DNA of 64,000 bases from an uncultured Clostridia bacterium (GTDB lineage Bacteria > Bacillota > Clostridia > TANB77 > CAG-465). Where the stretch lies: contig CAKOYA010000001.1 in NCBI GenBank assembly GCA_934130325.1, positions 33,725 to 97,724 of the forward strand. Direction: 5' to 3'. The translations under genes and the position numbers were made by a program. Below the pieces are notes generated by a model. That model was not told the DNA's origin, ran no database searches, and saw only the letters and a program-made list of their open reading frames with translations. Shown here in pieces: positions 5,679 to 21,463 of this stretch (position 1 is the stretch's first letter; each line of letters opens with the position of its first letter).

Positions 5679-6074
5679 ATGGCAAAGAAAGAATATATAT
5701 ATGCAACAGGTAAAAGAAAATCATCTATAGCTAGAGTTAATATAATACCTGGTACAGGTAAAATAACTATAAACAAAAAAGATATGGATGAAGTTTACAC
5801 TTTAGATACATTAAAGGCAATTGTTTTAAAACCTTTTAAAGTAGCTAATATGATGGAAAAATATGATGTTATTGCTACAGTAAATGGTGGTGGATTCTCT
5901 GGTCAAGCTGGTGCTATTGCACATGGTATTGCTAAAGCTCTTGCAACAACTGATCCAGAAGTTCGTACAATATTAAAGAGAAATGGTCTTCTTACTAGAG
6001 ATTCTAGAGTAAAAGAAAGAAGAAAATATGGTCTTAAAAAGGCAAGAAAAGCACCACAATTCTCAAAGAGATAA
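5679..6074 (+). CDS. rpsI: 30S ribosomal protein S9
   Basis: [19 protein letters not shown]...[17 protein letters not shown]. Confidence 0.95.
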
Positions 6075-6146
6075 AAAAAGCTTTTATCAAAAGCAATTTA
6101 ACCTCAGAAGTTTCAAGGCTTCCGAGGTTTTTTGTTGCTGCTTGGT
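6075..6146. repeat. direct repeat copy A (attL-like): rpsI 3' end and terminator
   Basis: aagagataaaaaaagcttttatcaaaagcaatttaacctcagaagtttcaaggcttccgaggtttttt is ~88% identical to 16318-16390. Confidence 0.8.
6101..6135 (+). terminator. rho-independent terminator of rplM-rpsI (cctcagaag...cttccgagg + T-run)
   Basis: stem-loop followed by ttttttg. Confidence 0.7.
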
Positions 6147-6537
6147 AATTTTTACTATACAATGTCTGCAAATATTGATATTTCAACACTTCTATTTTTT
6201 ATTTGTTTGCCATTTAAATTTGTAATATACAAGTAATATGCTAGTAATATACAAATTTATATTTCAACTTTCTATAATTGTTAATATATCTATATCACAA
6301 AAAAGCTAACTATGCTCCACTATTATTTTTCGCATAATTAGCTTTGTATTTTATTAATACAACGAATCGTTATTTAAATAAATTGTAATTTGTCGAGATG
6401 ATTATAATATAAAAAATTATAAGTTTTTTGAAATTATTTATATTCTTATATAATGGTCCTCAACGTATATTTAATCATTTGATTTAATAGCCTCCATTTT
6501 TCACTATTAAAAAACACTATTATTATAGCAATATTTT

Positions 6538-8627: not shown

Positions 8628-9770
8628 TTATTTTATCATATCAATATACGAATTTTTAAATGTATTTATATCATATTGTATTTGCCATTCTTTAAGAGGC
8701 TCTTTTCTTTCAATATATTCTTTATTTTTTATAGTTTCCAATATTTTATTTTTTAATTCTTCACTATTATTTTTAAATATATAATTATAATCATTTCCAT
8801 TTACTAATTCATTAAATGTTGGTATATCATTTAATATTGTATATATTCCCAATGATAATGATTCTAACGCAGAATATCCAAAACTCTCTGATCTACTTGG
8901 TAATACGCATATGTCTGCGATCTTATACACTTCTGACATATAATCAAATCTTATTATTTTTATAGTTATATTATTTATACTTGCTTGTCTTTTTAATGAA
9001 TCTAAAAATTTTTCATACTGTTTATCTAATCCAGTATAAATAATCTCAATTTTTGCTTTTTCAGCATTTTCCATTAAACAACAAGCATCCAGTAATAATT
9101 GAGGCTGTTTTTGATTTGGCTCTAACCTTTGAGGAACAATTATCTTAATTTTTTTCTTATCTATATTATATTTCTCACAAATTTCATCCTTATTCTTTTC
9201 TGTTTTTAACCTTTCTTTATCTATTGCGTGAGGAATAAAATTTATTTTACATTCAGTTAATTTGCTATATTCATTAGCATAGAACTTTGATGGAGCTACA
9301 AATATTGTTTTATCATCGTCATTGTATCTTTTCATTATATCAATTACTCTTTCAAAAGATTTCTCGCCCCAAGCAAGAATATATTCAAATGGATTAGTAT
9401 GTATTGTGAATATTCTTTTTTTATCCTTCCAAGCTTCTAAAACCAATAAAGAATTTAATTGTATAAAATCATATTTTTCCATATTAATTTTATTTTCAAG
9501 TTTTCTTGCCAAGTTTGAATATGATGTATCTGTTTCAAAATTTCCAAAAGCTTCTTGAACTATATATTCATCTGCTTCTCCCTTTATATTAAACAGGTCT
9601 ATATTTATATAATTTACACCATCTTCTCTATGTGTATTTCCTGAAAACATATATACGTCTACTTCATTTCCGTTGTCTGCAAAAGCTTTCGCAATATCCA
9701 TTACAAATCTTTCTGTTCCTCCAACTGCTTTTTTAGATATCGCCCAAGTATTTACTATCGCTATTTTCAT
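8628..9770 (-). CDS. glycosyltransferase family 1/4 (GT-B)
   Basis: MKIAIVNTWAISKKAVGGTERFV... N-domain; C-domain ...VLPSRSESFGYSALESLSLG; ~380 aa. Confidence 0.75.
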   Translation of the reverse strand: MKIAIVNTWAISKKAVGGTERFVMDIAKAFADNGNEVDVYMFSGNTHREDGVNYINIDLFNIKGEADEYIVQEAFGNFETDTSYSNLARKLENKINMEKYDFIQLNSLLVLEAWKDKKRIFTIHTNPFEYILAWGEKSFERVIDIMKRYNDDDKTIFVAPSKFYANEYSKLTECKINFIPHAIDKERLKTEKNKDEICEKYNIDKKKIKIIVPQRLEPNQKQPQLLLDACCLMENAEKAKIEIIYTGLDKQYEKFLDSLKRQASINNITIKIIRFDYMSEVYKIADICVLPSRSESFGYSALESLSLGIYTILNDIPTFNELVNGNDYNYIFKNNSEELKNKILETIKNKEYIERKEPLKEWQIQYDINTFKNSYIDMIK

Positions 9771-9801
9771 TTTTTTCACCCTCATCTCTTTTTACTTCAT
9801 T

Positions 9802-10899
9802 TTATTTTTTAGGTAATTGCCTATTGCCTTTTTTCGGATCAATTTTTATTCTATCTTTTAAATTCTTTTCTTTTTTCTTCAAATCGTATGAATTTTGAAT
9901 TATACTTAAGTAATTCTCATTAGAGTTTCTTTCAGAATATTCATAAGCTCTCTTGCTTAACTCTCTATATGTTTCTTTATCTATATTAATTCTTTTTGCT
10001 TTTTCTCCTCCTGGTATAACTATTCCCATTCCATATTGTTTTACCTCTTGTGAAAAATCTATAACATCTGATATTATTACAGGTTTTCCACGAACTAATC
10101 CGTCTATTAATGAATTTGGCACATCTTTTACTACCCTTTTCTGTGGCACAAATGCAACAAAATCAGAATCATCAAATAATTGTGTTAAAATTTGAGTATT
10201 ATTATGTATTTCTAATAGTTTAACTCTATCATATACTCCCTTCTCTTTCGCGATTGCATTAAAATTTTTTGTATCATTATCTCTTAATGGAATAGTTAAT
10301 GTGTAATTAGGATTTTCTTTTAATAATTCTAGTAAATATTCTAATCCTCTTTCTTTTATTGCATCTCCCTCTTTATTATTCCAACTTGCAAATAATATAT
10401 TTACATTATCGCTACTATATTCTTTATTGCTTTTTTTTCTTTCTATTTTAGATGGTGTTGGAGTAACTTCAATCTTTTCTTCATCAATTCCACATTCAAT
10501 TAATAACTGTTTATGCTGTGGTAATTCAACAAAAACTTTTTTTAAATTTTTATATTTTTTTAAATGTTTCGCATACTGTTCAGTAGGTCTTCTATACATT
10601 GATACATATAACTGATTTCCTGCTTTATTAAATAAAACTCTTTTCCATAAACATGGTTCTTCTTCAAAAACATGAACTTTTTCTTTTTTTGCATTATATG
10701 TTTCTTTTATCGCTTGAAAAACATATTTTATTGGGGAATACACATAAATATTATCTTCTATATCTTATTTTTGCATAGCTTGTTGTCCCATAAATCTTGT
10801 TGCTGAAATAATCTTAGCATTATTAGCTTTTGAAATCAACTCCATTTGATTTGACACAGCCTCTTTATATCTTACAAAAAAATCATTAATTACTAACAT
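9802..10899 (-). pseudogene. glycosyltransferase-like (GT-B C-terminal domain) interrupted by an in-frame TAA at 10765-10767
   Basis: 44 codons from ATG 10899 (MLVINDFF...GQQAMQK) then TAA, then the same frame continues DIEDNIYV-YSPIKY... to 9802; C-terminal region FVPQKRVVKDVPNSLIDGLVRGKPVIISDV resembles the GT1 family. Confidence 0.5.
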
Positions 10900-11888
10900 A
10901 ATTCTATTTCTCCATCTATTATACTATATAATTTTTTTAAAATCATTTGTTTTTCTTCAAATTTATTTTCATATCTATTTACTATACTATAGCGATCTTC
11001 TCTCGGTTTTAAATCTATAAAACTTTTTTCAATTATGTTTTTATTCAATCCATATTTATCAGCTTTTTCAAAAATATTTAATTTTTTTATAGCTTTTACT
11101 ATTTCTGAAACATCTCTATTCTGCATTAATCCCATTGCTAATATTCCAATTGAAACAGACATTCCGTGTGGTACATTTATTATTCTTTCTATTTCCTTTG
11201 CCATTATATGTTCAGAGCCACTTTCTGGTCTTCCTGTTCCATACAAATTAGTTATATATCCTGCTATACCAATAAATTCAAATAATTTAATATTATTTTT
11301 TACTATATCCTCAAATTCATTATTGTTTACAAACTTAATAACATCTTGCAATAATTTTTCTGCCATATTATATATATTGTAATCAATTTTTTCATCTATA
11401 TCTTTTTGAGCAATTTTCCAATCATAAAGAGCTGTATATATTGAGAAAACATCAGCTAGTCCATATATATTTTCTTCTTTTGACAAATTTAACAATTCAT
11501 CATCAATTATTATTGTTTCAGGAATTTTTGCCTCCAAAGTTACTTTTTTGTTTTCTTTTATTAATGCAACTTTATTTGTTGCATATGAATTTGTTGATAA
11601 CATTGTTAGAATACAAGTAAATTTAACATTTAATTTATATGCTATATATTTTCCAATATCAATTGTACTTCCTCCACCATAACTAGTTACTGTTGTTATG
11701 TTTTTATTTTCTTTAATAAACTTTTCTATCTTATCAATGTTTTTGGTAAGATTATGCCAATTAACCATTAAACATTTATTATTATCTATATTATTTTTTT
11801 CAATAGATGTTGGCGAATATATGACTAACTCATTTGGTTTCAAATTTTCAATATATTTTTTACTATTATATTTTTGAATAACCTCCAT
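10893..11888 (-). CDS. iron-containing alcohol dehydrogenase family (glycerol / sn-glycerol-1-phosphate dehydrogenase-like)
   Basis: GGGSTIDIGKYIA nucleotide-binding motif, His-rich metal site HIMAKEIERIINVPHG; 331 aa. Confidence 0.6.
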   Translation of the reverse strand: MEVIQKYNSKKYIENLKPNELVIYSPTSIEKNNIDNNKCLMVNWHNLTKNIDKIEKFIKENKNITTVTSYGGGSTIDIGKYIAYKLNVKFTCILTMLSTNSYATNKVALIKENKKVTLEAKIPETIIIDDELLNLSKEENIYGLADVFSIYTALYDWKIAQKDIDEKIDYNIYNMAEKLLQDVIKFVNNNEFEDIVKNNIKLFEFIGIAGYITNLYGTGRPESGSEHIMAKEIERIINVPHGMSVSIGILAMGLMQNRDVSEIVKAIKKLNIFEKADKYGLNKNIIEKSFIDLKPREDRYSIVNRYENKFEEKQMILKKLYSIIDGEIELC

Positions 11889-11917
11889 AAAATTATTGTT
11901 TTTGATTATATTTCTCC

Positions 11918-13003
11918 TTATAAATATTTTTCTAACTCCTTATTTTCTTGTACCTTTTTTATTAAACTTGGTAATTCTATCATCTTTTCTTGTTCTACTA
12001 TAAGCAAAACATTATTACTTTTTACTATATTTAATCCTCGTGTTCCCGCAATTGCAAAAATCGTATTGTCATCATCATTATATATATTACAAGATTCTAC
12101 ATCTTCTATTACAGAATTACCTTTTATAGTATTATTGTTCTGATCTTTTTCTTGAATTTTAAAAAAATCATTAATACTACCTATATCAAGCCATTCAAAT
12201 TCTCCTTTTATCATTTTTATATTACTTGCTTTTTCAAGTATCCCTTTATCAATAGAAATAGCATCTACTTTTTGATATACTTCTTTCAAGGTATTAATAT
12301 TATTTTTTAAACCATTTATTATTACATCTTTATATTTATATATTTGTGGCAAAAATTTTTGAAAATTATTTAATATTGTAGAAATTTCCCATATAAACAT
12401 TCCACTATTCCAATAGTATTTTCCACTTTCTAAATATTCTTGTGCTTTTATATATATTGGTTTTTCTTTAAATTCTTCTACAATATTGCATTTTAGATTA
12501 TCATCATAATGATATTTTATATATCCAAATCCAGTTGCAGGATATGTAGGCTTTATTCCTATTGTAACCAAATTTTCGTGGCTATTTGCTAAACTAATTC
12601 CTTCTTCGATATTTTTTATTAGTTTTTCTGATTGTTTTATATAATGATCCGAAGCTAAAATGGTCATTGTTCCATTTCCTTTTTGGTTTAATATTTTTAT
12701 AGAAGTATAAAAAATACACATTGCCGTGCTTTTTGACATAGGCTCATAAATAATATTTTCTCTTGGTATTCTATAGTCAATATATCTTTCAGCAAGTTCC
12801 TTTTGTTCTATACTTGTTATTACAAAAATATCATCATATTCAAATAAATTTTCTATTCTTTTTATTGTTTCATTTATCATTATATTATCAGAATATAAAT
12901 TCAAATATTGTTTAGGCTTATTAGTGGTACTAATAGGCCACAAACGACTTCCTTTTCCTCCTGCTAATATTAAAGCGTATCTTTTTTCATTATTATCTTT
13001 CAT
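11918..13003 (-). CDS. manC: mannose-1-phosphate guanylyltransferase (nucleotidyltransferase, no PMI domain)
   Basis: LAGGKGSRLWPISTTNKPKQYL N-terminal signature; 361 aa. Confidence 0.7.
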   Translation of the reverse strand: MKDNNEKRYALILAGGKGSRLWPISTTNKPKQYLNLYSDNIMINETIKRIENLFEYDDIFVITSIEQKELAERYIDYRIPRENIIYEPMSKSTAMCIFYTSIKILNQKGNGTMTILASDHYIKQSEKLIKNIEEGISLANSHENLVTIGIKPTYPATGFGYIKYHYDDNLKCNIVEEFKEKPIYIKAQEYLESGKYYWNSGMFIWEISTILNNFQKFLPQIYKYKDVIINGLKNNINTLKEVYQKVDAISIDKGILEKASNIKMIKGEFEWLDIGSINDFFKIQEKDQNNNTIKGNSVIEDVESCNIYNDDDNTIFAIAGTRGLNIVKSNNVLLIVEQEKMIELPSLIKKVQENKELEKYL

Positions 13004-13574
13004 TATTATCCTCTTTCAACTCTTTTAAGAAATTAACATAAGATTTACTTTGTTTCTTATTTTCCTCTTTTATTATAGCATTATAACCTTTTCTAACATA
13101 ATCATTTATTGTATATTTTTCATAGTTATTTATTGTTTCTAATGTTCTTTTTGATTCCTCAATATTATCAGAAATATGTATTAAATTATCAAAAAAATAG
13201 CCTTCTATTTTAGGTGCATATTCAGTTCTAATTCTTTGTTTTACTTTTCTTGCTTCGATACATTGAATTTTCCCATCAGCACTCTTTTGATACGTTGGAT
13301 TATCTATCTTAAAAACAAATACCACAATTTTTTTATTATCGGTATTCATATTTTTAATTTTGTCATATATATATCCACCCTCGTAAGCCTCTTCATCTCC
13401 TTTATAACAATCTAATACAAATTGTTCATATTTTTCTCCTAGATCCAATACTTTTACTTGTATAACATCTTCCATAATAGCTATTTTTAACATCATTTCT
13501 CTAGCATATTTATTTCCCATATTCCACAATATTCCAATAGGATATTCACTATCATAATTTTTTATTATTTGCAT
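12993..13574 (-). CDS. hypothetical protein (193 aa), translationally coupled upstream of manC
   Basis: ORF only; overlaps manC start by 11 nt; no recognisable motif. Confidence 0.4.
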   Translation of the reverse strand: MQIIKNYDSEYPIGILWNMGNKYAREMMLKIAIMEDVIQVKVLDLGEKYEQFVLDCYKGDEEAYEGGYIYDKIKNMNTDNKKIVVFVFKIDNPTYQKSADGKIQCIEARKVKQRIRTEYAPKIEGYFFDNLIHISDNIEESKRTLETINNYEKYTINDYVRKGYNAIIKEENKKQSKSYVNFLKELKEDNNER

Positions 13575-13741: not shown

Positions 13742-14737
13742 TCATGTTATATACTTTCTATGTGAATTTTTCACATTATTCTGATTTACCATTGCATATT
13801 CCATTGTCGTATCTATTTTTATGTGCCCTAATAATTTTTGAACTTGTTCTATTGGCATACCTTTATCAATAGCCATCGTTGCCATTGTTCTTCTAAATTT
13901 ATGTGGATGCACCTTGTTTATGTTTACTTGTTTTCCTAAATTTCTAATAGCAATTTCAATCCTTGATATTCCTAATCTATTATAAGGTTTTATTAATGAC
14001 ACAAATAATGCTTCATTGTTATCCATCCTTGTTTCTAAATATTTCTTTATATACATTTTACTCTTTGCACTAAAATAAACTTCTCTTTCACTATTACCTT
14101 TACCTAAAACAATACAGCTTCTTTATTGAAAATTTATATCAGCTATATTTAATCTAGTAAGTTCTCCAACTCTCATACCAGTTGAAATTAATAGTTCTAA
14201 TATTGCTAAATCTCTTACATTTGAGCAAGTATCTCTTAACCTTTCTAAATTCTCATCTGTTAATGTTTCTTTAACTCTTCTAGTCGTTTTTACTTTGTGA
14301 ATCCTTCTAACTGGACTTTTTACAATATAATCTTCGTTTTCTAACCAGCCAAAGAAACTTGATAATGTTCTTCTTATATTATCTGTTGTTACCATACCTG
14401 CATTTGAATTACTTTTATACTCGGATAAATAGTTTCTTAACGTTTCGGTAGTAATCTCATCTATTGGAAGATTTACAGTATCAAGCATTTTATTTATATT
14501 ATCTCTGTAATAATTTAAAGTTCTTATCGAACAACCTTCAATGTCTTTAGATGATATAAATCTATTCAAAAGTTCTTTATTATTCTTTTGTATTTCTTCC
14601 TTTTGACTTTGTTCTAGTACTTCAATTCTATAATATATGCATATTTCTGTAAGTTTTTCTTTTAGTTTTATTCTTTGGTTGTTGTCTAAAAAATCTGTAG
14701 TTTCATCAACTACTTTTTCAACAAATAACTCTTTCAA
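13742..14737 (-). pseudogene. tyrosine site-specific integrase (XerC/D-like) with an in-frame TAA at 14123-14125
   Basis: N-part ...ISTGMRVGELTRLNIADINFQ then TAA, then the same frame continues RSCIVLGKGNSEREV...HPHKFRRTMAT...LLGHIKIDTTMEYAMVN (R..HxxR..Y catalytic set). Confidence 0.8.
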
Positions 14738-15134
14738 AAAACTCCCCTCCTTCTAAATTTAAATTACTTCTAATTTTGCAATATACAGAACTATACTTAT
14801 ATTATACTATGTTTTTATCGTTTTACATAACTTCTTAAAATGAACAACAAAAATGAGTATATTTAAAGTATATATACCCATTTTTTCATCTATTCCATTC
14901 TATATTTCATTTAAATCCAGAAACACAACCTCAGCGACAACTTACTATTTATTTATTATAATTTTATCTTTTTTCTTGACTTTTTATCTTTAAATAGCTT
15001 ATAATAAATATAGGAAATGACAAATCCACAAACGTGGTTTTGCCGAATTAAGTTTGAAAAAACTCACACCTAACTCGCCAAAGTTACAGATGTGAGCTTT
15101 TTTATTTTTACAGTATATTTTTATCAAATATTTT

Positions 15135-15536
15135 TTAATGCTTATATGCACTATAATTCCAATCATCCCCAATCACATATAAAAGTGATGGACATTTCTT
15201 GGACGGTACTAAAAGCATTCTACATTTTTGTTTATTAAATCTAAATACTATAATTTTACTATCATTTGTTAACCCTAATTCTTTTCTTATTCTTTCATCT
15301 ATTACTACATTTAATTCATATAATGGTAACATCTCATATCCTACTGATTTAGGCTTATTTTGAAAGTCTACCAATCTTACATTTGAAAGTTCCTTAAAGT
15401 TTTCGTATAATTCATATATTATTTCGTTACATTTTTCTTTTGTCTTTTTTATTATTTTTTCTATTGTATATTCTTTTGAATTAACAGAATACTTAAATGA
15501 AAGAATTATATTTTCATCATGTCTACATTCTAGCAT
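15135..15536 (-). CDS. uncharacterised 133-aa protein, candidate PanT-type toxin paired with Panacea antitoxin
   Basis: start overlaps the stop of the DUF4065 gene (15536); no known domain recognised. Confidence 0.45.
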   Translation of the reverse strand: MLECRHDENIILSFKYSVNSKEYTIEKIIKKTKEKCNEIIYELYENFKELSNVRLVDFQNKPKSVGYEMLPLYELNVVIDERIRKELGLTNDSKIIVFRFNKQKCRMLLVPSKKCPSLLYVIGDDWNYSAYKH

Positions 15537-15997
15537 TATATATTGCTATAGTTCTCCTTGAAATAATTTTGTATTGCTCTTTTGTCTATAACATGGTTTC
15601 TGTCTGTTTCTCTCCATGGTGTTTCTTGGTGTGTCATATCTCTTAGTTTCCATGCTGTATATTGTCCAAACCTATCATAAACTTTTTTTAATAATACTTT
15701 AGTATCTTCATCTAATTTATCATCATAATCTTCTTCATATTGTATTCCATTTGATCCAAATATTCTAAATTTATCATATATTTTTCTGATTACTGGTCCA
15801 TGTTCCCATGCTAAAAAATTTTCTTTTATTAAGCTCTCATCATTTTGGGCTAAATAACATCCTTGTGCATAATATAATAACTTTTGCAATTTTAAGTTTG
15901 TTATAAATTCAGAATCTCCAAAATTCATTTGTTTTCTATTTTCATTTAAAAACCAATTTGCAATGTCTATTGCACTATATTTTCCTTTATTGAACAT
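15536..15997 (-). CDS. Panacea-domain (DUF4065, SocA/GepA-like) antitoxin
   Basis: AIDIANWFLNE...ITNLKLQKLLYYAQGCYLA...FLAWEHGPVIRKIYDKF matches the DUF4065 pattern. Confidence 0.8.
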   Translation of the reverse strand: MFNKGKYSAIDIANWFLNENRKQMNFGDSEFITNLKLQKLLYYAQGCYLAQNDESLIKENFLAWEHGPVIRKIYDKFRIFGSNGIQYEEDYDDKLDEDTKVLLKKVYDRFGQYTAWKLRDMTHQETPWRETDRNHVIDKRAIQNYFKENYSNI

Positions 15998-16317
15998 AGA
16001 ATTCCCTACTTCTTTTAGATTTATAATATATTTTTTAACAATAATATATTATATAATAAATTTAGCATTTATTTTCATACATTATAAAACTTTTGTTTGC
16101 TTTTGTCAATAATTTCTATCTTTTTCTTATATATTCTTTATAATATGGTCTGTTTCCTATTACATTATAACATAATGCTTCATAAAATCAATAATTCTTA
16201 ACTAAATTTTTATATAATTTATATTCTTTTAACCATTACTTACATCTAAAATATAATAATCTTATAATATACAAAAATGTCATTTTTTATTGATAAATCA
16301 ACCTTTGTAATTTAGTA

Positions 16318-16390
16318 AGAGATAAGAAGAGCTTTTATCAAAATCAATTCAACCTCAGAAGTTTCAATACTTCCGAGGTTTTTATTTTTG
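16318..16390. repeat. direct repeat copy B (attR-like) of the rpsI 3' end/terminator
   Basis: aagagataagaagagcttttatcaaaatcaattcaacctcagaagtttcaatacttccgaggttttta; even keeps the K-R-stop codons of rpsI. Confidence 0.8.
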
Positions 16391-16493
16391 CTTGCCCTTT
16401 AAATTTAGTAAAAGGTACTATTTTATTATTGTATTATTCAAAACCTCGAAAATTTTAATATTTTACTTAAAATATTAGATTTATATACAAAAT

Positions 16494-16517
16494 ATCCAGT
16501 TCAACTATGAACTGGAT
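16494..16517 (-). terminator. perfect 10-bp inverted repeat atccagttca-acta-tgaactggat with T-run on minus strand (terminator of the 170-aa gene); second copy at 18355-18378
   Basis: palindrome read directly; lies at the duplication boundaries. Confidence 0.6.
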
Positions 16518-16529
16518 ATTTTCCGTTAC

Positions 16530-17042
16530 TTAATTAAGTAAATATTTTTTTACTAGCGCCTTAGAAAGCGCCATTTGAGATTTTTTTGTAAACACAAATT
16601 TGTTTTTTATATCTCCTCCGGTTTCAAATTCCATACCAATCAAAATTTCAACGATTTTAGCATTTATCATTTTCATACCCATTGGATCTTCTGGGTACTG
16701 ATTTATGACCATGTACGGAGTTATATTAAAATCGTCATATATATGATGGTTGTCAATTTTACAAAACGCAAATCCTGCCATCACAATGTCCTCAAGAGTA
16801 TTGTTATAAGTAGGATCAATATCCTTTATGTCAAGCACATCAAATGCTATTCGTACCTGACACCTATTAAGTGAATAATGCGGATCATAGCATACCCTCA
16901 TTGTTCCTATTAATTCCCTTGATTCTTTGCTAAATATCTCCAAATAAACTACAGGTGGAACGTCCTTTGGACGATCGATACACTCTACTGATAAGTAGAT
17001 TTTTCCGAAGTGGTTTAACATTGCAATCCACTCTCCTTTCAA
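16530..17042 (-). CDS. hypothetical protein (170 aa), copy 1
   Basis: ORF; identical copy at 18391-18903. Confidence 0.5.
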   Translation of the reverse strand: MKGEWIAMLNHFGKIYLSVECIDRPKDVPPVVYLEIFSKESRELIGTMRVCYDPHYSLNRCQVRIAFDVLDIKDIDPTYNNTLEDIVMAGFAFCKIDNHHIYDDFNITPYMVINQYPEDPMGMKMINAKIVEILIGMEFETGGDIKNKFVFTKKSQMALSKALVKKYLLN

Positions 17043-17173
17043 AAATAATAATTATATTATATTACGGTAAACTATTTTTGTCAAGTATTTTTAAAAAGAT
17101 CACTAATATTACTGAATTTTTTATAAATAATAAATAGACACTAATTATATAATATAATTAATGTCTACTAATA

Positions 17174-18334
17174 TTATTGTTTATTTTGGGTAGTTGTATT
17201 AGTAATTGTAGAATCATTTCCAAGTGTAACTTCAATTTCTTGTTCCTTAGACGCTCTAACTATCTTTAATTTTATCTTATCACCGATTTTTTTAGTATTT
17301 TTATACTCATTTAATTTTTCCATAGTTTTTGATTCTTGACCATCAATGGCTATGATAATATCACCCTTTTGAATTCCTGCTACTGCTGCAGGTGAATTAG
17401 CATATATCTGTGCCACATAAACACCTTCTGTTAAATTATTTCTCTTAGCAGTAGTTTCATCAATATCAATTCCACCTATACCAATATATGGTCTTTCTAT
17501 CTTTCCTTTTGATATTAATTCGTCAATTACAGTCAGTGCATCATCTGTAGGAATCGCAAATCCTAAGCCTTCAACTTCTGTAGCTCCAATTTTTACTGTA
17601 TTTATTCCAATTACCTCACCTGAAGAATTAACTAATGCACCACCACTGTTTCCTGGATTTATAGCGGCATCTGTTTGTATTAACTTATATGTTCTTCCAT
17701 CAGTTGTAATCTTCCTATTTAAAGCTGATATATATCCAACTGTTACACTACCAGCAAACTCTTGACCTAATGGATTACCTATTGCTACAGCTAATTCTCC
17801 AACTTTTAAATCTGAGGATTTACCAATTTTTGCTGCCTTTAATCCTGTTTTATCTATCTTTATAACTGCTAGATCTGTAGTTTGATCCCCACCAACTATT
17901 GTTGCCTCTACTTCCTCATCCGAATTTGGGAAAGTAACAATAACTTTAGCAGTTGAATTGTTAATAGCAGACTCTATAACATGATAGTTTGTTATTATAT
18001 ACCCATCTTCCTTATATATTATGCCAGATCCTTCTTCATCAGATTCTGAAAGTGAGCCTAAGATATTTTGTGAAATATAATTTACTTTTACACCCACGAT
18101 TGATGGGCCTACATTTTCTGCTATTGCTACTACTGGATTTTCTACACTAGCAAATTCATATGATTTTGTTACTGACCCATCACTAGTTATCTGATTGGTA
18201 TTATTGGTTATTTTATTATCAATAGCAACATATGTAACTAAACTACCAAATACTCCTCCTATTAAAGCTATAATCAATATGACAACAACACTAGGTCCAG
18301 ATTTCTTTTCTTTAAACATAATTTTTTCATCCAT
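17174..18334 (-). CDS. htrA: HtrA/DegP-family serine protease with N-terminal TM anchor and C-terminal PDZ, copy 1
   Basis: catalytic H (ITNYHVIE), D (TDLAVIKID), S (GNSGGALVN); PDZ region GVYVAQIYANSPAAVAGIQKGDIIIAIDG. Confidence 0.9.
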   Translation of the reverse strand: MDEKIMFKEKKSGPSVVVILIIALIGGVFGSLVTYVAIDNKITNNTNQITSDGSVTKSYEFASVENPVVAIAENVGPSIVGVKVNYISQNILGSLSESDEEGSGIIYKEDGYIITNYHVIESAINNSTAKVIVTFPNSDEEVEATIVGGDQTTDLAVIKIDKTGLKAAKIGKSSDLKVGELAVAIGNPLGQEFAGSVTVGYISALNRKITTDGRTYKLIQTDAAINPGNSGGALVNSSGEVIGINTVKIGATEVEGLGFAIPTDDALTVIDELISKGKIERPYIGIGGIDIDETTAKRNNLTEGVYVAQIYANSPAAVAGIQKGDIIIAIDGQESKTMEKLNEYKNTKKIGDKIKLKIVRASKEQEIEVTLGNDSTITNTTTQNKQ

Positions 18335-18390
18335 AAAATTATCCCCTCCTACATATCCAGTTCAACTATGAACTGGATATGTTCTGTTAC

Positions 18391-18903
18391 TTAATTAAGT
18401 AAATATTTTTTTACTAGCGCCTTAGAAAGCGCCATTTGAGATTTTTTTGTAAACACAAATTTGTTTTTTATATCTCCTCCGGTTTCAAATTCCATACCAA
18501 TCAAAATTTCAACGATTTTAGCATTTATCATTTTCATACCCATTGGATCTTCTGGGTACTGATTTATGACCATGTACGGAGTTATATTAAAATCGTCATA
18601 TATATGATGGTTGTCAATTTTACAAAACGCAAATCCTGCCATCACAATGTCCTCAAGAGTATTGTTATAAGTAGGATCAATATCCTTTATGTCAAGCACA
18701 TCAAATGCTATTCGTACCTGACACCTATTAAGTGAATAATGCGGATCATAGCATACCCTCATTGTTCCTATTAATTCCCTTGATTCTTTGCTAAATATCT
18801 CCAAATAAACTACAGGTGGAACGTCCTTTGGACGATCGATACACTCTACTGATAAGTAGATTTTTCCGAAGTGGTTTAACATTGCAATCCACTCTCCTTT
18901 CAA
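18391..18903 (-). CDS. hypothetical protein (170 aa), copy 2
   Basis: identical to 16530-17042. Confidence 0.5.
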   Translation of the reverse strand: MKGEWIAMLNHFGKIYLSVECIDRPKDVPPVVYLEIFSKESRELIGTMRVCYDPHYSLNRCQVRIAFDVLDIKDIDPTYNNTLEDIVMAGFAFCKIDNHHIYDDFNITPYMVINQYPEDPMGMKMINAKIVEILIGMEFETGGDIKNKFVFTKKSQMALSKALVKKYLLN

Positions 18904-19034
18904 AAATAATAATTATATTATATTACGGTAAACTATTTTTGTCAAGTATTTTTAAAAAGATCACTAATATTACTGAATTTTTTATAAATAATAAATAGAC
19001 ACTAATTATATAATATAATTAATGTCTACTAATA

Positions 19035-20195
19035 TTATTGTTTATTTTGGGTAGTTGTATTAGTAATTGTAGAATCATTTCCAAGTGTAACTTCAATTTC
19101 TTGTTCCTTAGACGCTCTAACTATCTTTAATTTTATCTTATCACCGATTTTTTTAGTATTTTTATACTCATTTAATTTTTCCATAGTTTTTGATTCTTGA
19201 CCATCAATGGCTATGATAATATCACCCTTTTGAATTCCTGCTACTGCTGCAGGTGAATTAGCATATATCTGTGCCACATAAACACCTTCTGTTAAATTAT
19301 TTCTCTTAGCAGTAGTTTCATCAATATCAATTCCACCTATACCAATATATGGTCTTTCTATCTTTCCTTTTGATATTAATTCGTCAATTACAGTCAGTGC
19401 ATCATCTGTAGGAATCGCAAATCCTAAGCCTTCAACTTCTGTAGCTCCAATTTTTACTGTATTTATTCCAATTACCTCACCTGAAGAATTAACTAATGCA
19501 CCACCACTGTTTCCTGGATTTATAGCGGCATCTGTTTGTATTAACTTATATGTTCTTCCATCAGTTGTAATCTTCCTATTTAAAGCTGATATATATCCAA
19601 CTGTTACACTACCAGCAAACTCTTGACCTAATGGATTACCTATTGCTACAGCTAATTCTCCAACTTTTAAATCTGAGGATTTACCAATTTTTGCTGCCTT
19701 TAATCCTGTTTTATCTATCTTTATAACTGCTAGATCTGTAGTTTGATCCCCACCAACTATTGTTGCCTCTACTTCCTCATCCGAATTTGGGAAAGTAACA
19801 ATAACTTTAGCAGTTGAATTGTTAATAGCAGACTCTATAACATGATAGTTTGTTATTATATACCCATCTTCCTTATATATTATGCCAGATCCTTCTTCAT
19901 CAGATTCTGAAAGTGAGCCTAAGATATTTTGTGAAATATAATTTACTTTTACACCCACGATTGATGGGCCTACATTTTCTGCTATTGCTACTACTGGATT
20001 TTCTACACTAGCAAATTCATATGATTTTGTTACTGACCCATCACTAGTTATCTGATTGGTATTATTGGTTATTTTATTATCAATAGCAACATATGTAACT
20101 AAACTACCAAATACTCCTCCTATTAAAGCTATAATTAATATGACAACAACACTAGGTACAGACTTCTTTTCTTTAAACATAATTTTTTCATCCAT
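19035..20195 (-). CDS. htrA: HtrA/DegP-family serine protease, copy 2 (G12V relative to copy 1)
   Basis: identical to copy 1 except KKSVPS vs KKSGPS. Confidence 0.9.
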   Translation of the reverse strand: MDEKIMFKEKKSVPSVVVILIIALIGGVFGSLVTYVAIDNKITNNTNQITSDGSVTKSYEFASVENPVVAIAENVGPSIVGVKVNYISQNILGSLSESDEEGSGIIYKEDGYIITNYHVIESAINNSTAKVIVTFPNSDEEVEATIVGGDQTTDLAVIKIDKTGLKAAKIGKSSDLKVGELAVAIGNPLGQEFAGSVTVGYISALNRKITTDGRTYKLIQTDAAINPGNSGGALVNSSGEVIGINTVKIGATEVEGLGFAIPTDDALTVIDELISKGKIERPYIGIGGIDIDETTAKRNNLTEGVYVAQIYANSPAAVAGIQKGDIIIAIDGQESKTMEKLNEYKNTKKIGDKIKLKIVRASKEQEIEVTLGNDSTITNTTTQNKQ

Positions 20196-20209
20196 AAAAT
20201 TATCCCCTC

Positions 20210-21463
20210 CTACATTTCATTATTACTACCTGCAGCCACAGCTGTAGAGAATGCTATTTGCAGATTATATCCACCTGTATAGGCATCAATGTCTAAAACC
20301 TCTCCTGCAAAATATAAATTTTTTATAATCTTCGATTCCATCGTCTTAGGATTTACTTCCTTAACATTAATACCTCCACATGTTATAATTGCAAATTCTA
20401 GTGGCATTAAGTTATTTATCTTAATTGTTAAACTTTTTATACATTTTACTAACCTTTTTCTTTCTTCTTTAGTTATTTGATGCACTTTCTTATTTTCCTC
20501 AATACCAGACATAATTATAATTTGCGGTATAAGTTTTTGAGGTAGCAAATCATTTAAACTATTTTTAAATTCCTTATTTGAATTCTTATCAAAATCCCTG
20601 CAAATTCTCTTATCTAACGTTTTTTCATCTAAAGCTGGTTTTAAATCTATAATCGCACATATTTTACCCTGCTTTAATTTTTCAGAAACATTATCATACC
20701 TATTTAATATACTACTTGAACTCAAAACAACAGGTCCAGTTATTCCAAAATGTGCAAACATTAATTCACCAAAATCTTCATAAATATTCTTTTTTATATC
20801 CAAATCAAACAAACTGTATCTTATATTTTTAAGAGTCAAGCCTTGTAATTTTTTACATATACTATCACTACTTTTTAAAGGTACTAACCCTGGCAATAAT
20901 TTTTCAATACTATGCCCAACATTCTTAGAAATTGTATATCCATCACCTGTACTACCAGTTGTAGAATAACTCATACCACCAGTCGCTAATATACATTTTT
21001 CACAATATATTTTTTCACCATTATCAAGTTTTACTCCAATCAAAGAATTTTCGTTTAAAATAATGTTAGCAACACTAGAATTAAATAAAATTTTGACTCT
21101 TTGTTGTTTTAATTTTTCTTTTAGAGCGCTTACTACCTCATTTGCATCATCTGATACTGGAAATACCCTATTTCCACGTTCAATTTTAGTTTTTACACCA
21201 AGTTTCTCGAAAAAATCTATAGTATCGTTGTTATCAAAATTATTAAAGCTACTATATAAAAATCTATAGTTCTTAACAACATTATTTTTAAAATCTTCTG
21301 AATCACCAGCAAAAGTTAAATTACAACGACCTTTTCCAGTTATTTTTAACTTATTTCCAAGACTATCTGTTTTTTCTATTAACAATACATCATTTCCTTG
21401 GGTAGAAGCAGTAATAGCTGCCATCATCCCAGCTGCTCCACCCCCTATTACAATAACTTTCAT
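20210..21463 (-). CDS. HI0933/BaiN-family FAD-dependent flavoprotein
   Basis: MKVIVIGGGAAGMMAAITA...GKGRCNLT dinucleotide-binding N-terminus; 417 aa. Confidence 0.7.
   Translation of the reverse strand: MKVIVIGGGAAGMMAAITASTQGNDVLLIEKTDSLGNKLKITGKGRCNLTFAGDSEDFKNNVVKNYRFLYSSFNNFDNNDTIDFFEKLGVKTKIERGNRVFPVSDDANEVVSALKEKLKQQRVKILFNSSVANIILNENSLIGVKLDNGEKIYCEKCILATGGMSYSTTGSTGDGYTISKNVGHSIEKLLPGLVPLKSSDSICKKLQGLTLKNIRYSLFDLDIKKNIYEDFGELMFAHFGITGPVVLSSSSILNRYDNVSEKLKQGKICAIIDLKPALDEKTLDKRICRDFDKNSNKEFKNSLNDLLPQKLIPQIIIMSGIEENKKVHQITKEERKRLVKCIKSLTIKINNLMPLEFAIITCGGINVKEVNPKTMESKIIKNLYFAGEVLDIDAYTGGYNLQIAFSTAVAAGSNNEM

Follow-up and report, generated by a model that had tools for sequence, protein, structure and literature searches.

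A putative PanAT toxin-antitoxin cassette pairing a standalone Panacea protein with a predicted RelE-fold toxin in an uncultured Clostridia bacterium

We analysed a 64,000-nucleotide stretch of DNA (hereafter, the window) from an uncultured Clostridia bacterium (GTDB lineage Bacteria; Bacillota; Clostridia; TANB77; CAG-465; NCBI GenBank assembly GCA_934130325.1, contig CAKOYA010000001.1, positions 33,725 to 97,724 of the forward strand) and examined a two-gene locus in it, panA-panT. We consider it likely that positions 15057-16109 on the minus strand are a self-contained, horizontally mobile type II PanAT toxin-antitoxin cassette, in which a RelE-fold, HigB/YoeB-like toxin (PanT) is neutralised directly by a Panacea antitoxin (PanA). 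This reading is based on the domain of PanA, the predicted fold of PanT and the synteny, selection and mobility of the pair; from these we infer its toxicity, RNA target, mode of neutralisation and biological role.

Organisation of the panA-panT locus

Two co-directional open reading frames (ORFs) were found on the minus strand of the window, at 15536-15997 (153 aa) and 15135-15536 (133 aa). Their junction reads ATATAATGCTAG, in which the TAA of panA and the ATG of panT share a single base, 15536. The 153-aa product matched the Pfam model SocA_Panacea (PF13274) far above threshold over residues 37-128 (E = 1.5e-23, 84.3 bits against a cut-off of 25.7). A first-pass annotation of this DNA had already given the two ORFs, an overlap of stop and start codons between them and a DUF4065/Panacea identity for the upstream product, and all three were confirmed. 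PanA also matched phrog_1281 and phrog_10390. Against the NCBIfam SocA equivalog (NF047745) it scored 76.2 bits, below the cut-off of 190, and it falls outside that equivalog. A domain search of the 153-aa product found no N-terminal HTH, PAD1 or ZBD domain. The features of the cassette are as follows.

16081..16109 (-): putative sigma-70-type promoter; TTGACA, 17 nt, TATAAT; panA starts about 84 nt downstream
15998..16080 (-): 5' leader, AT-rich and conserved in an alignment of upstream regions; contains repeated ATATATTAT-type motifs as well as the panA Shine-Dalgarno sequence
15536..15997 (-): panA, encoding a 153-aa standalone Panacea (DUF4065; Pfam PF13274) putative antitoxin
15135..15536 (-): panT, encoding a 133-aa predicted toxin of the RelE/ParE superfamily (HigB-like); TAATG overlap with panA
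15057..15102 (-): hairpin resembling an intrinsic terminator, with a U-run after it; 33 nt past the panT stop codon

The hexamers at 16081-16109 were the sole 12/12 consensus match in the promoter scan. Of nine related upstream regions, seven keep the -35 hexamer and six the -10 hexamer (locus L015 has TATACT), and we regard a sigma-70-type promoter function of this element as probable from its sequence. The ATATATTAT-type motifs of the roughly 84-nt leader might, speculatively, be a candidate operator. At the other end of the cassette, the hairpin at 15057-15102 had a predicted RNA folding energy of -21.7 kcal/mol (z = -3.84), and none of 200 shuffled sequences was as stable; a simple terminator scan did not pick it up. 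Homology between the window and its relatives stops just past this hairpin. In a search of Rfam, no RNA family was found within 13-21 kb of the window.

Predicted fold and putative active site of PanT

The 133-aa PanT had no above-threshold match in Pfam, PADLOC, NCBIfam or PHROGs, and its relatives match phrog_8366, which is annotated as 'unknown function'. The most recurrent sub-threshold match was Pfam HigB_toxin (PF09907), which was seen in 5 of 149 family members with a best E of 0.003. Because no family model was matched significantly, PanT belongs only to a structural superfamily and to no existing sequence family. Weak matches to CdiA_C, KwaB and CcmS were set aside as chance, being below threshold, limited to short stretches and not recurrent among relatives. 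In tblastn searches of phage and plasmid collections, neither the PanT of the window nor two distant members found a match.

The first-pass annotation had described the 133-aa protein as having no recognisable domain and had proposed structure prediction as a check on it. The description holds for the sequence searches, but the predicted structure shows a RelE/ParE-superfamily fold, a classical toxin class; homology to a non-toxin family was not found. The AlphaFold2 model of PanT reached a predicted local distance difference test score (pLDDT) of 85.7 with an alignment of 24 sequences and 93.0 with one of 149 sequences, and the order of secondary-structure elements was identical between the shallow and the deep model. 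With the deep alignment the predicted template modelling score (pTM) was 0.86 and all five models had a pLDDT of at least 88.9. The best structural matches of PanT were the RNases HigB and RelE, and the top two Foldseek matches, though weak, were also HigB. Furthermore, the top 26 structural neighbours were all toxin-antitoxin toxins except the larger Txp40 and Cami1; the sequence identity of PanT to its structural neighbours was 9-14%. A Foldseek search against viral structures gave no significant match. On the basis of the model, PanT is predicted to adopt the alpha/beta fold of the RelE/ParE superfamily, of the microbial-RNase type, and would be placed in that superfamily by structure.

In the alignment of 149 sequences, all members carry Y131 and H133, 148 carry R106 and 145 each carry E68 and D125; G66, R99 and F100 are kept in 143, 141 and 137 sequences, respectively. 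Catalytic residues of related toxins have been established by mutagenesis: the C-terminal Asp90-Tyr91-His92 and Arg73 of HigB, Glu46/His83 of YoeB and His50/His87 of YafQ (PMC5027501). The conserved Glu, two Arg, Asp and C-terminal Tyr-x-His of PanT appear to form a set comparable to those of HigB, YoeB and YafQ, and we propose by analogy that Glu68, Arg99/Arg106, Asp125 and the C-terminal Tyr131-x-His133 make up its active site. Such a set of catalytic-type residues suggests that PanT is a ribosome-dependent mRNA endonuclease resembling HigB and YoeB, an activity towards which we lean with modest confidence.

The same fold is compatible with a ParE-like toxin that poisons DNA gyrase or another non-RNA target and does not cleave mRNA on the ribosome. 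This is the main mechanistic alternative to an mRNase, and we consider it improbable. Among the structural matches the best are the RNases HigB and RelE, the sole recurrent near-match in Pfam is HigB_toxin, and the invariant C-terminal Tyr-x-His together with the Glu, Arg and Asp resembles the acid-base residues of HigB, YoeB and YafQ. To our knowledge, ParE toxins lack acid-base residues of this kind.

Conservation and mobility of the cassette

Close relatives of PanT formed 28 clusters of 51-91% identity, all of them metagenomic. Among species-representative genomes, PanT was found in metagenome-assembled genomes (MAGs) of uncultured gut Clostridia from humans and rabbits, with a best match of 96% identity. 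An exhaustive profile search gave a wider family of 283 clusters at 50% identity (E ≤ 0.001), or 150 at E ≤ 1e-10, whose members are mostly 140-157 aa. In most PanTs of this wider family, the N terminus is extended by a Lys-rich stretch of about 20 residues (e.g. MSKIKDNKKKPKIS); this stretch is lacking in the 133-aa subfamily of the window and could serve as an rRNA-binding tail. One close homologue, P0012, bears the JGI name 'DNA-directed RNA polymerase beta' subunit' and is evidently mis-annotated, judging from its size and family.

A PanA homologue lies directly upstream of panT in all 14 distinct close loci, including 11 of 11 genome loci. In these 14 loci both genes are intact and adjacent, and the identities of PanA and PanT drop together, from 98 to 57% and from 96 to 51%, respectively. 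The TAATG junction is found in 12 of them; in L021 the equivalent TAGTG takes its place, and in L001 the two genes overlap by 8 nt. When distant members are included, a Panacea gene precedes panT in 19 of 19 distinct contexts checked, over 24-96% PanT identity. The ratio of nonsynonymous to synonymous substitution rates (dN/dS) was 0.07-0.2 for both genes where dS was unsaturated, and that of panA was 0.09-0.22 against close relatives. Both genes are under purifying selection, and the pair is more than two chance ORFs.

The similarity of the window DNA to every relative is limited to approximately 15095-16220, a cassette of 1.1 kb which holds the promoter, panA, panT and the terminator. All five distant PanTs that were checked (24-35% identity) directly follow a Panacea gene at a spacing of -8 to +10 nt. 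The contexts of the distant and the close members are listed below.

Distant PanT, context 1: beside AbiEi/AbiEii
Distant PanT, context 2: TrbL-bearing conjugative element of Leptotrichia
Distant PanT, context 3: AntA/terminase prophage
Distant PanT, context 4: adjoining holin and amidase genes
Distant PanT, context 5: unrelated to the other four
Close relatives: between infC-rplT and rpsI-rplM; adjoining sporulation and MMPL genes; HK97-type prophage

Unrelated genomic contexts of this kind are expected of a mobile toxin-antitoxin module. Since all five distant members follow a Panacea gene and their mobile contexts vary, the whole family appears to be a dedicated Panacea partner carried on mobile elements. 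In the survey of Kurata 2022, a toxin-antitoxin-like locus was defined by a partner within 100 nt, an architecture present in at least two species and no conserved operon of more than three genes. The cassette, with its 1-nt overlap, conserved pair and differing flanks in each context, is such a locus.

It is very unlikely that the 133-aa protein is instead a non-toxic RNA-binding or regulatory partner of RelE fold and the pair no toxin-antitoxin system, for although several predicted PanTs were not toxic in E. coli in Kurata 2022 (supporting information Table S1, PMC8832971), the strict coupling to Panacea over 24-96% identity, the mobility of the two-gene cassette, the conserved polar residues of catalytic type and the 26 top structural neighbours, toxins of toxin-antitoxin systems apart from Txp40 and Cami1, all speak against it.

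Proposed mechanism

In the mechanism that we propose, the strong consensus promoter would give a single bicistronic panA-panT transcript, from which PanA would be translated first and PanT by termination-reinitiation at TAATG. This coupling would tie the synthesis of PanT to that of PanA. By analogy with other PanAT systems, PanA may bind PanT directly with the Panacea domain itself and so neutralise it, and free PanT would arrest translation by cleaving mRNA. Standalone Panacea proteins have been reported to neutralise their toxins directly and multidomain PanAs to use accessory domains (Ernits 2023, PMC10440598). In addition, PanA and PanT form a complex, and neutralisation was independent of ClpXP and Lon (Kurata 2022, PMC8832971).

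Evidence against this reading and the allele of the window

Several observations weigh against a functional cassette with a RelE-fold toxin. The fold assignment stands on a predicted, not a solved, structure, and the catalytic assignment is one by analogy. PanT reached no RelE or HigB family at significance by any sequence method, and PDB sequences searched with profiles built from 24 or 149 PanT sequences returned only noise. In hhalign, a thin alignment of E. coli-type HigB was matched at 16% probability over 23 columns, covering the beta-hairpin only. This local match aligns the family R106 with the invariant R68 of HigB, which is consistent with a relationship to HigB and was not counted as evidence; an hhalign comparison with a single, approximate YoeB sequence gave no match. 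A standalone PanA that has no DNA-binding domain would also leave autoregulation unexplained.

The remaining points concern the allele of the window itself. Compared with its nearest relative (L011, 96% identical), the window PanT carries T29I, M40I, K46N, Q111P and Y124D. Three of these five substitutions fall at positions that are invariant in 23 other close relatives, and T29I, K46N, Q111P and Y124D are at positions otherwise invariant or nearly so. Position 124 is Asp in the window and F, Y, L or I in the other 148 members; both Q111P and Y124D lie within predicted beta-strands. With two such radical changes at conserved positions, Y124D and Q111P, the window PanT may be attenuated or inactive.

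These changes can also be read as decay, in which the PanAT family is genuine and the copy in the window is a remnant with a weakened or inactive toxin, a retained antitoxin and a dead integrase. The five changes in PanT, of which Y124D is unique among the 149 sequences, agree with this, as do the conservative nature of the changes in panA, a panA Shine-Dalgarno sequence (16003-16012, -) that reads GTAGG in the window and GGAGG in seven of nine related loci, and an in-frame TAA in the adjacent integrase. Both ORFs are intact, however, and against L011 dN/dS remains low (0.15). For three of five substitutions to fall on the approximately 27% of columns that are otherwise invariant, we estimate p ~0.13 under random placement, and the pattern is therefore only suggestive; moreover, single-base assembly or sequencing errors are possible in a sequence that is probably metagenome-derived. 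We hold the decay of the window copy to be a tentative explanation, less likely than not.

Addiction or defence

Addiction and abortive-infection defence are equally compatible with the sites where family members occur, namely prophages, a conjugative element and the vicinity of AbiE. The pair may act mainly in abortive infection or phage defence, with Panacea sensing a phage cue and releasing the RelE-like effector, and not in the addiction of an island. This alternative is about biological role and does not conflict with the proposed mechanism. The occurrence of members in prophages, next to AbiEi/AbiEii and on a conjugative element is in its favour, and a sensory role for Panacea has been proposed and the toxin-antitoxin network tied to defence systems (Ernits 2023, PMC10440598). 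PADLOC, in contrast, gave no significant match, and several copies lie amid housekeeping genes (infC-rplT, rpsI). A principal role in defence is possible, although we are doubtful of it.

Genomic neighbourhood

A tyrosine recombinase of XerC/D type adjoins the cassette at 13742-14737 (-). It is a single frame of 332 codons with an in-frame TAA at 14123-14125 (INFQ*RSCIVLGKG; …DINFQ*RSCIVLGKGNSERE) and is otherwise intact, retaining both the catalytic motifs (H-x-x-R and Tyr) and a SAM-like domain at the N terminus; it is either a pseudogene or the product of a sequencing error. The G+C content is about 25% throughout the region, without a compositional shift, the integrase flank is common to none of the related loci, and no flanking pair of att-like repeats was found around the cassette. 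Because the integrase is broken and not co-inherited with the cassette, the integrase-island context is weak. The first-pass annotation had placed the module on an island next to the integrase; the recombinase is indeed adjacent, but the island itself was dropped on these grounds.

Beyond the broken integrase, as seen from the cassette, 8628-13574 (-) is occupied by a polysaccharide-biosynthesis-like cluster that encodes a GT4 glycosyltransferase, an Fe-ADH-like protein and an NTP_transferase and contains ORFs of 193 and 313 aa without Pfam matches. This cluster could be the actual variable region once served by the recombinase. On the other side of the cassette, 16492-18352 and 18353-20213 form a head-to-tail tandem duplication of 1861 bp with 99-100% identity. 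Each copy encodes an HtrA-like Trypsin_2/PDZ protease of 386 aa (the copies differ by G13V) and contains a 170-aa ORF without a Pfam or NCBIfam match; the duplication may be real and recent, or an assembly artefact.

A dispersed element of about 110 nt, intergenic and built on a 12-bp-stem hairpin (AACCTCGGAAGTATTGAAACTTCTGAGGTT), occurs twice in the window, at 16290-16430 (-) and 6040-6180 (-), and also at L011:1200-1340, L012:5070-5220 and L013:3220-3370. It is downstream of panT in the related Clostridia MAGs and upstream of panA in the window. It had no match in Rfam and could be a REP-like (repetitive extragenic palindromic) or terminator-type repeat.

Relation to known systems and significance

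The cassette resembles described PanAT systems in having a standalone Panacea gene just upstream of a small partner, in the A|T order and in the -1 overlap; the same two-gene architecture recurs across species without a larger conserved operon, and it is likewise spread over chromosomes, prophages and conjugative elements. The PanAT prediction comprised 1,268 pairs and at least 88 toxin-domain combinations (Kurata 2022, PMC8832971). In Kurata Dataset S1, the HHpred entries give T14 as HigB-2, YoeB and RelE at 99.7%, T28 as YoeB/ParE at 89%, T59 as ParE_toxin, T76 as RelB/HigB and T2 as the RelE-superfamily MqsR (PMC8832971). Panacea antitoxins paired with toxins of the RelE superfamily have therefore been catalogued before. 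Consequently, of the proposal in the first-pass annotation that this is a candidate new PanA-PanT pair, the PanAT assignment is well supported by the Panacea domain and by synteny over 24-96% identity, but the kind of pair is not new.

The toxin family of the window could not be mapped through accessions to any cluster in the accessible parts of the Kurata 2022 and NetFlax data; most of its members are known from metagenomes only. WP_021769915.1 and WP_021744862.1 (Leptotrichia), the only RefSeq accessions recovered for the family, are absent from the part of the Kurata dataset with which they were compared. The largest cluster of Kurata 2022, T1, is annotated 'hypothetical protein' with the A|T order, and its Clostridium cadaveris member has a -1 gap and the entry 'toxic, failed to neutralise, mRNase' (PMC8832971). 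The family of the window might belong to T1.

PanT exceeds HigB, YoeB and RelE in length by about 30-50 residues; it has an additional strand and helices at its N terminus, and a strand-helix is inserted at 67-87. The partner of those toxins is HigA, YefM or RelB, whereas that of PanT is Panacea; in classical higBA the toxin is not the second gene, whereas in the window cassette the antitoxin comes first. SocAB of Caulobacter, a type VI system in which SocA is the founding Panacea protein and a ClpXP adaptor, has the Panacea domain in common with PanA. Its toxin is SocB, in contrast to the predicted RelE-fold partner in the window, and neutralisation by PanA in the study of Kurata proceeded without ClpXP or Lon. 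We tentatively suggest that the PanT family of about 283 clusters represents a clade of the RelE superfamily that is undescribed and orphan in sequence, and that it evolved as an obligate partner of Panacea, with structural additions of its own and possibly a distinct substrate preference.

The finding leaves the current picture of toxin-antitoxin biology unchanged, and we do not claim a new toxin type. Structure prediction has resolved a protein without sequence-based annotation to a classical toxin fold. The Panacea network would gain a widespread, mostly metagenomic toxin family that extends over gut and oral Firmicutes, Fusobacteria, prophages and conjugative elements. None of the ten validated PanAT pairs includes a toxin of RelE/HigB fold, and the RNases among them are MazF-like (PMC8832971); the family could therefore offer a model of how a standalone Panacea protein neutralises such an enzyme. 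If the family is indeed such a clade, PanT would give the first RelE/HigB-fold toxin neutralised by Panacea with which to study how a ribosome-dependent RNase is blocked by a globular Panacea.
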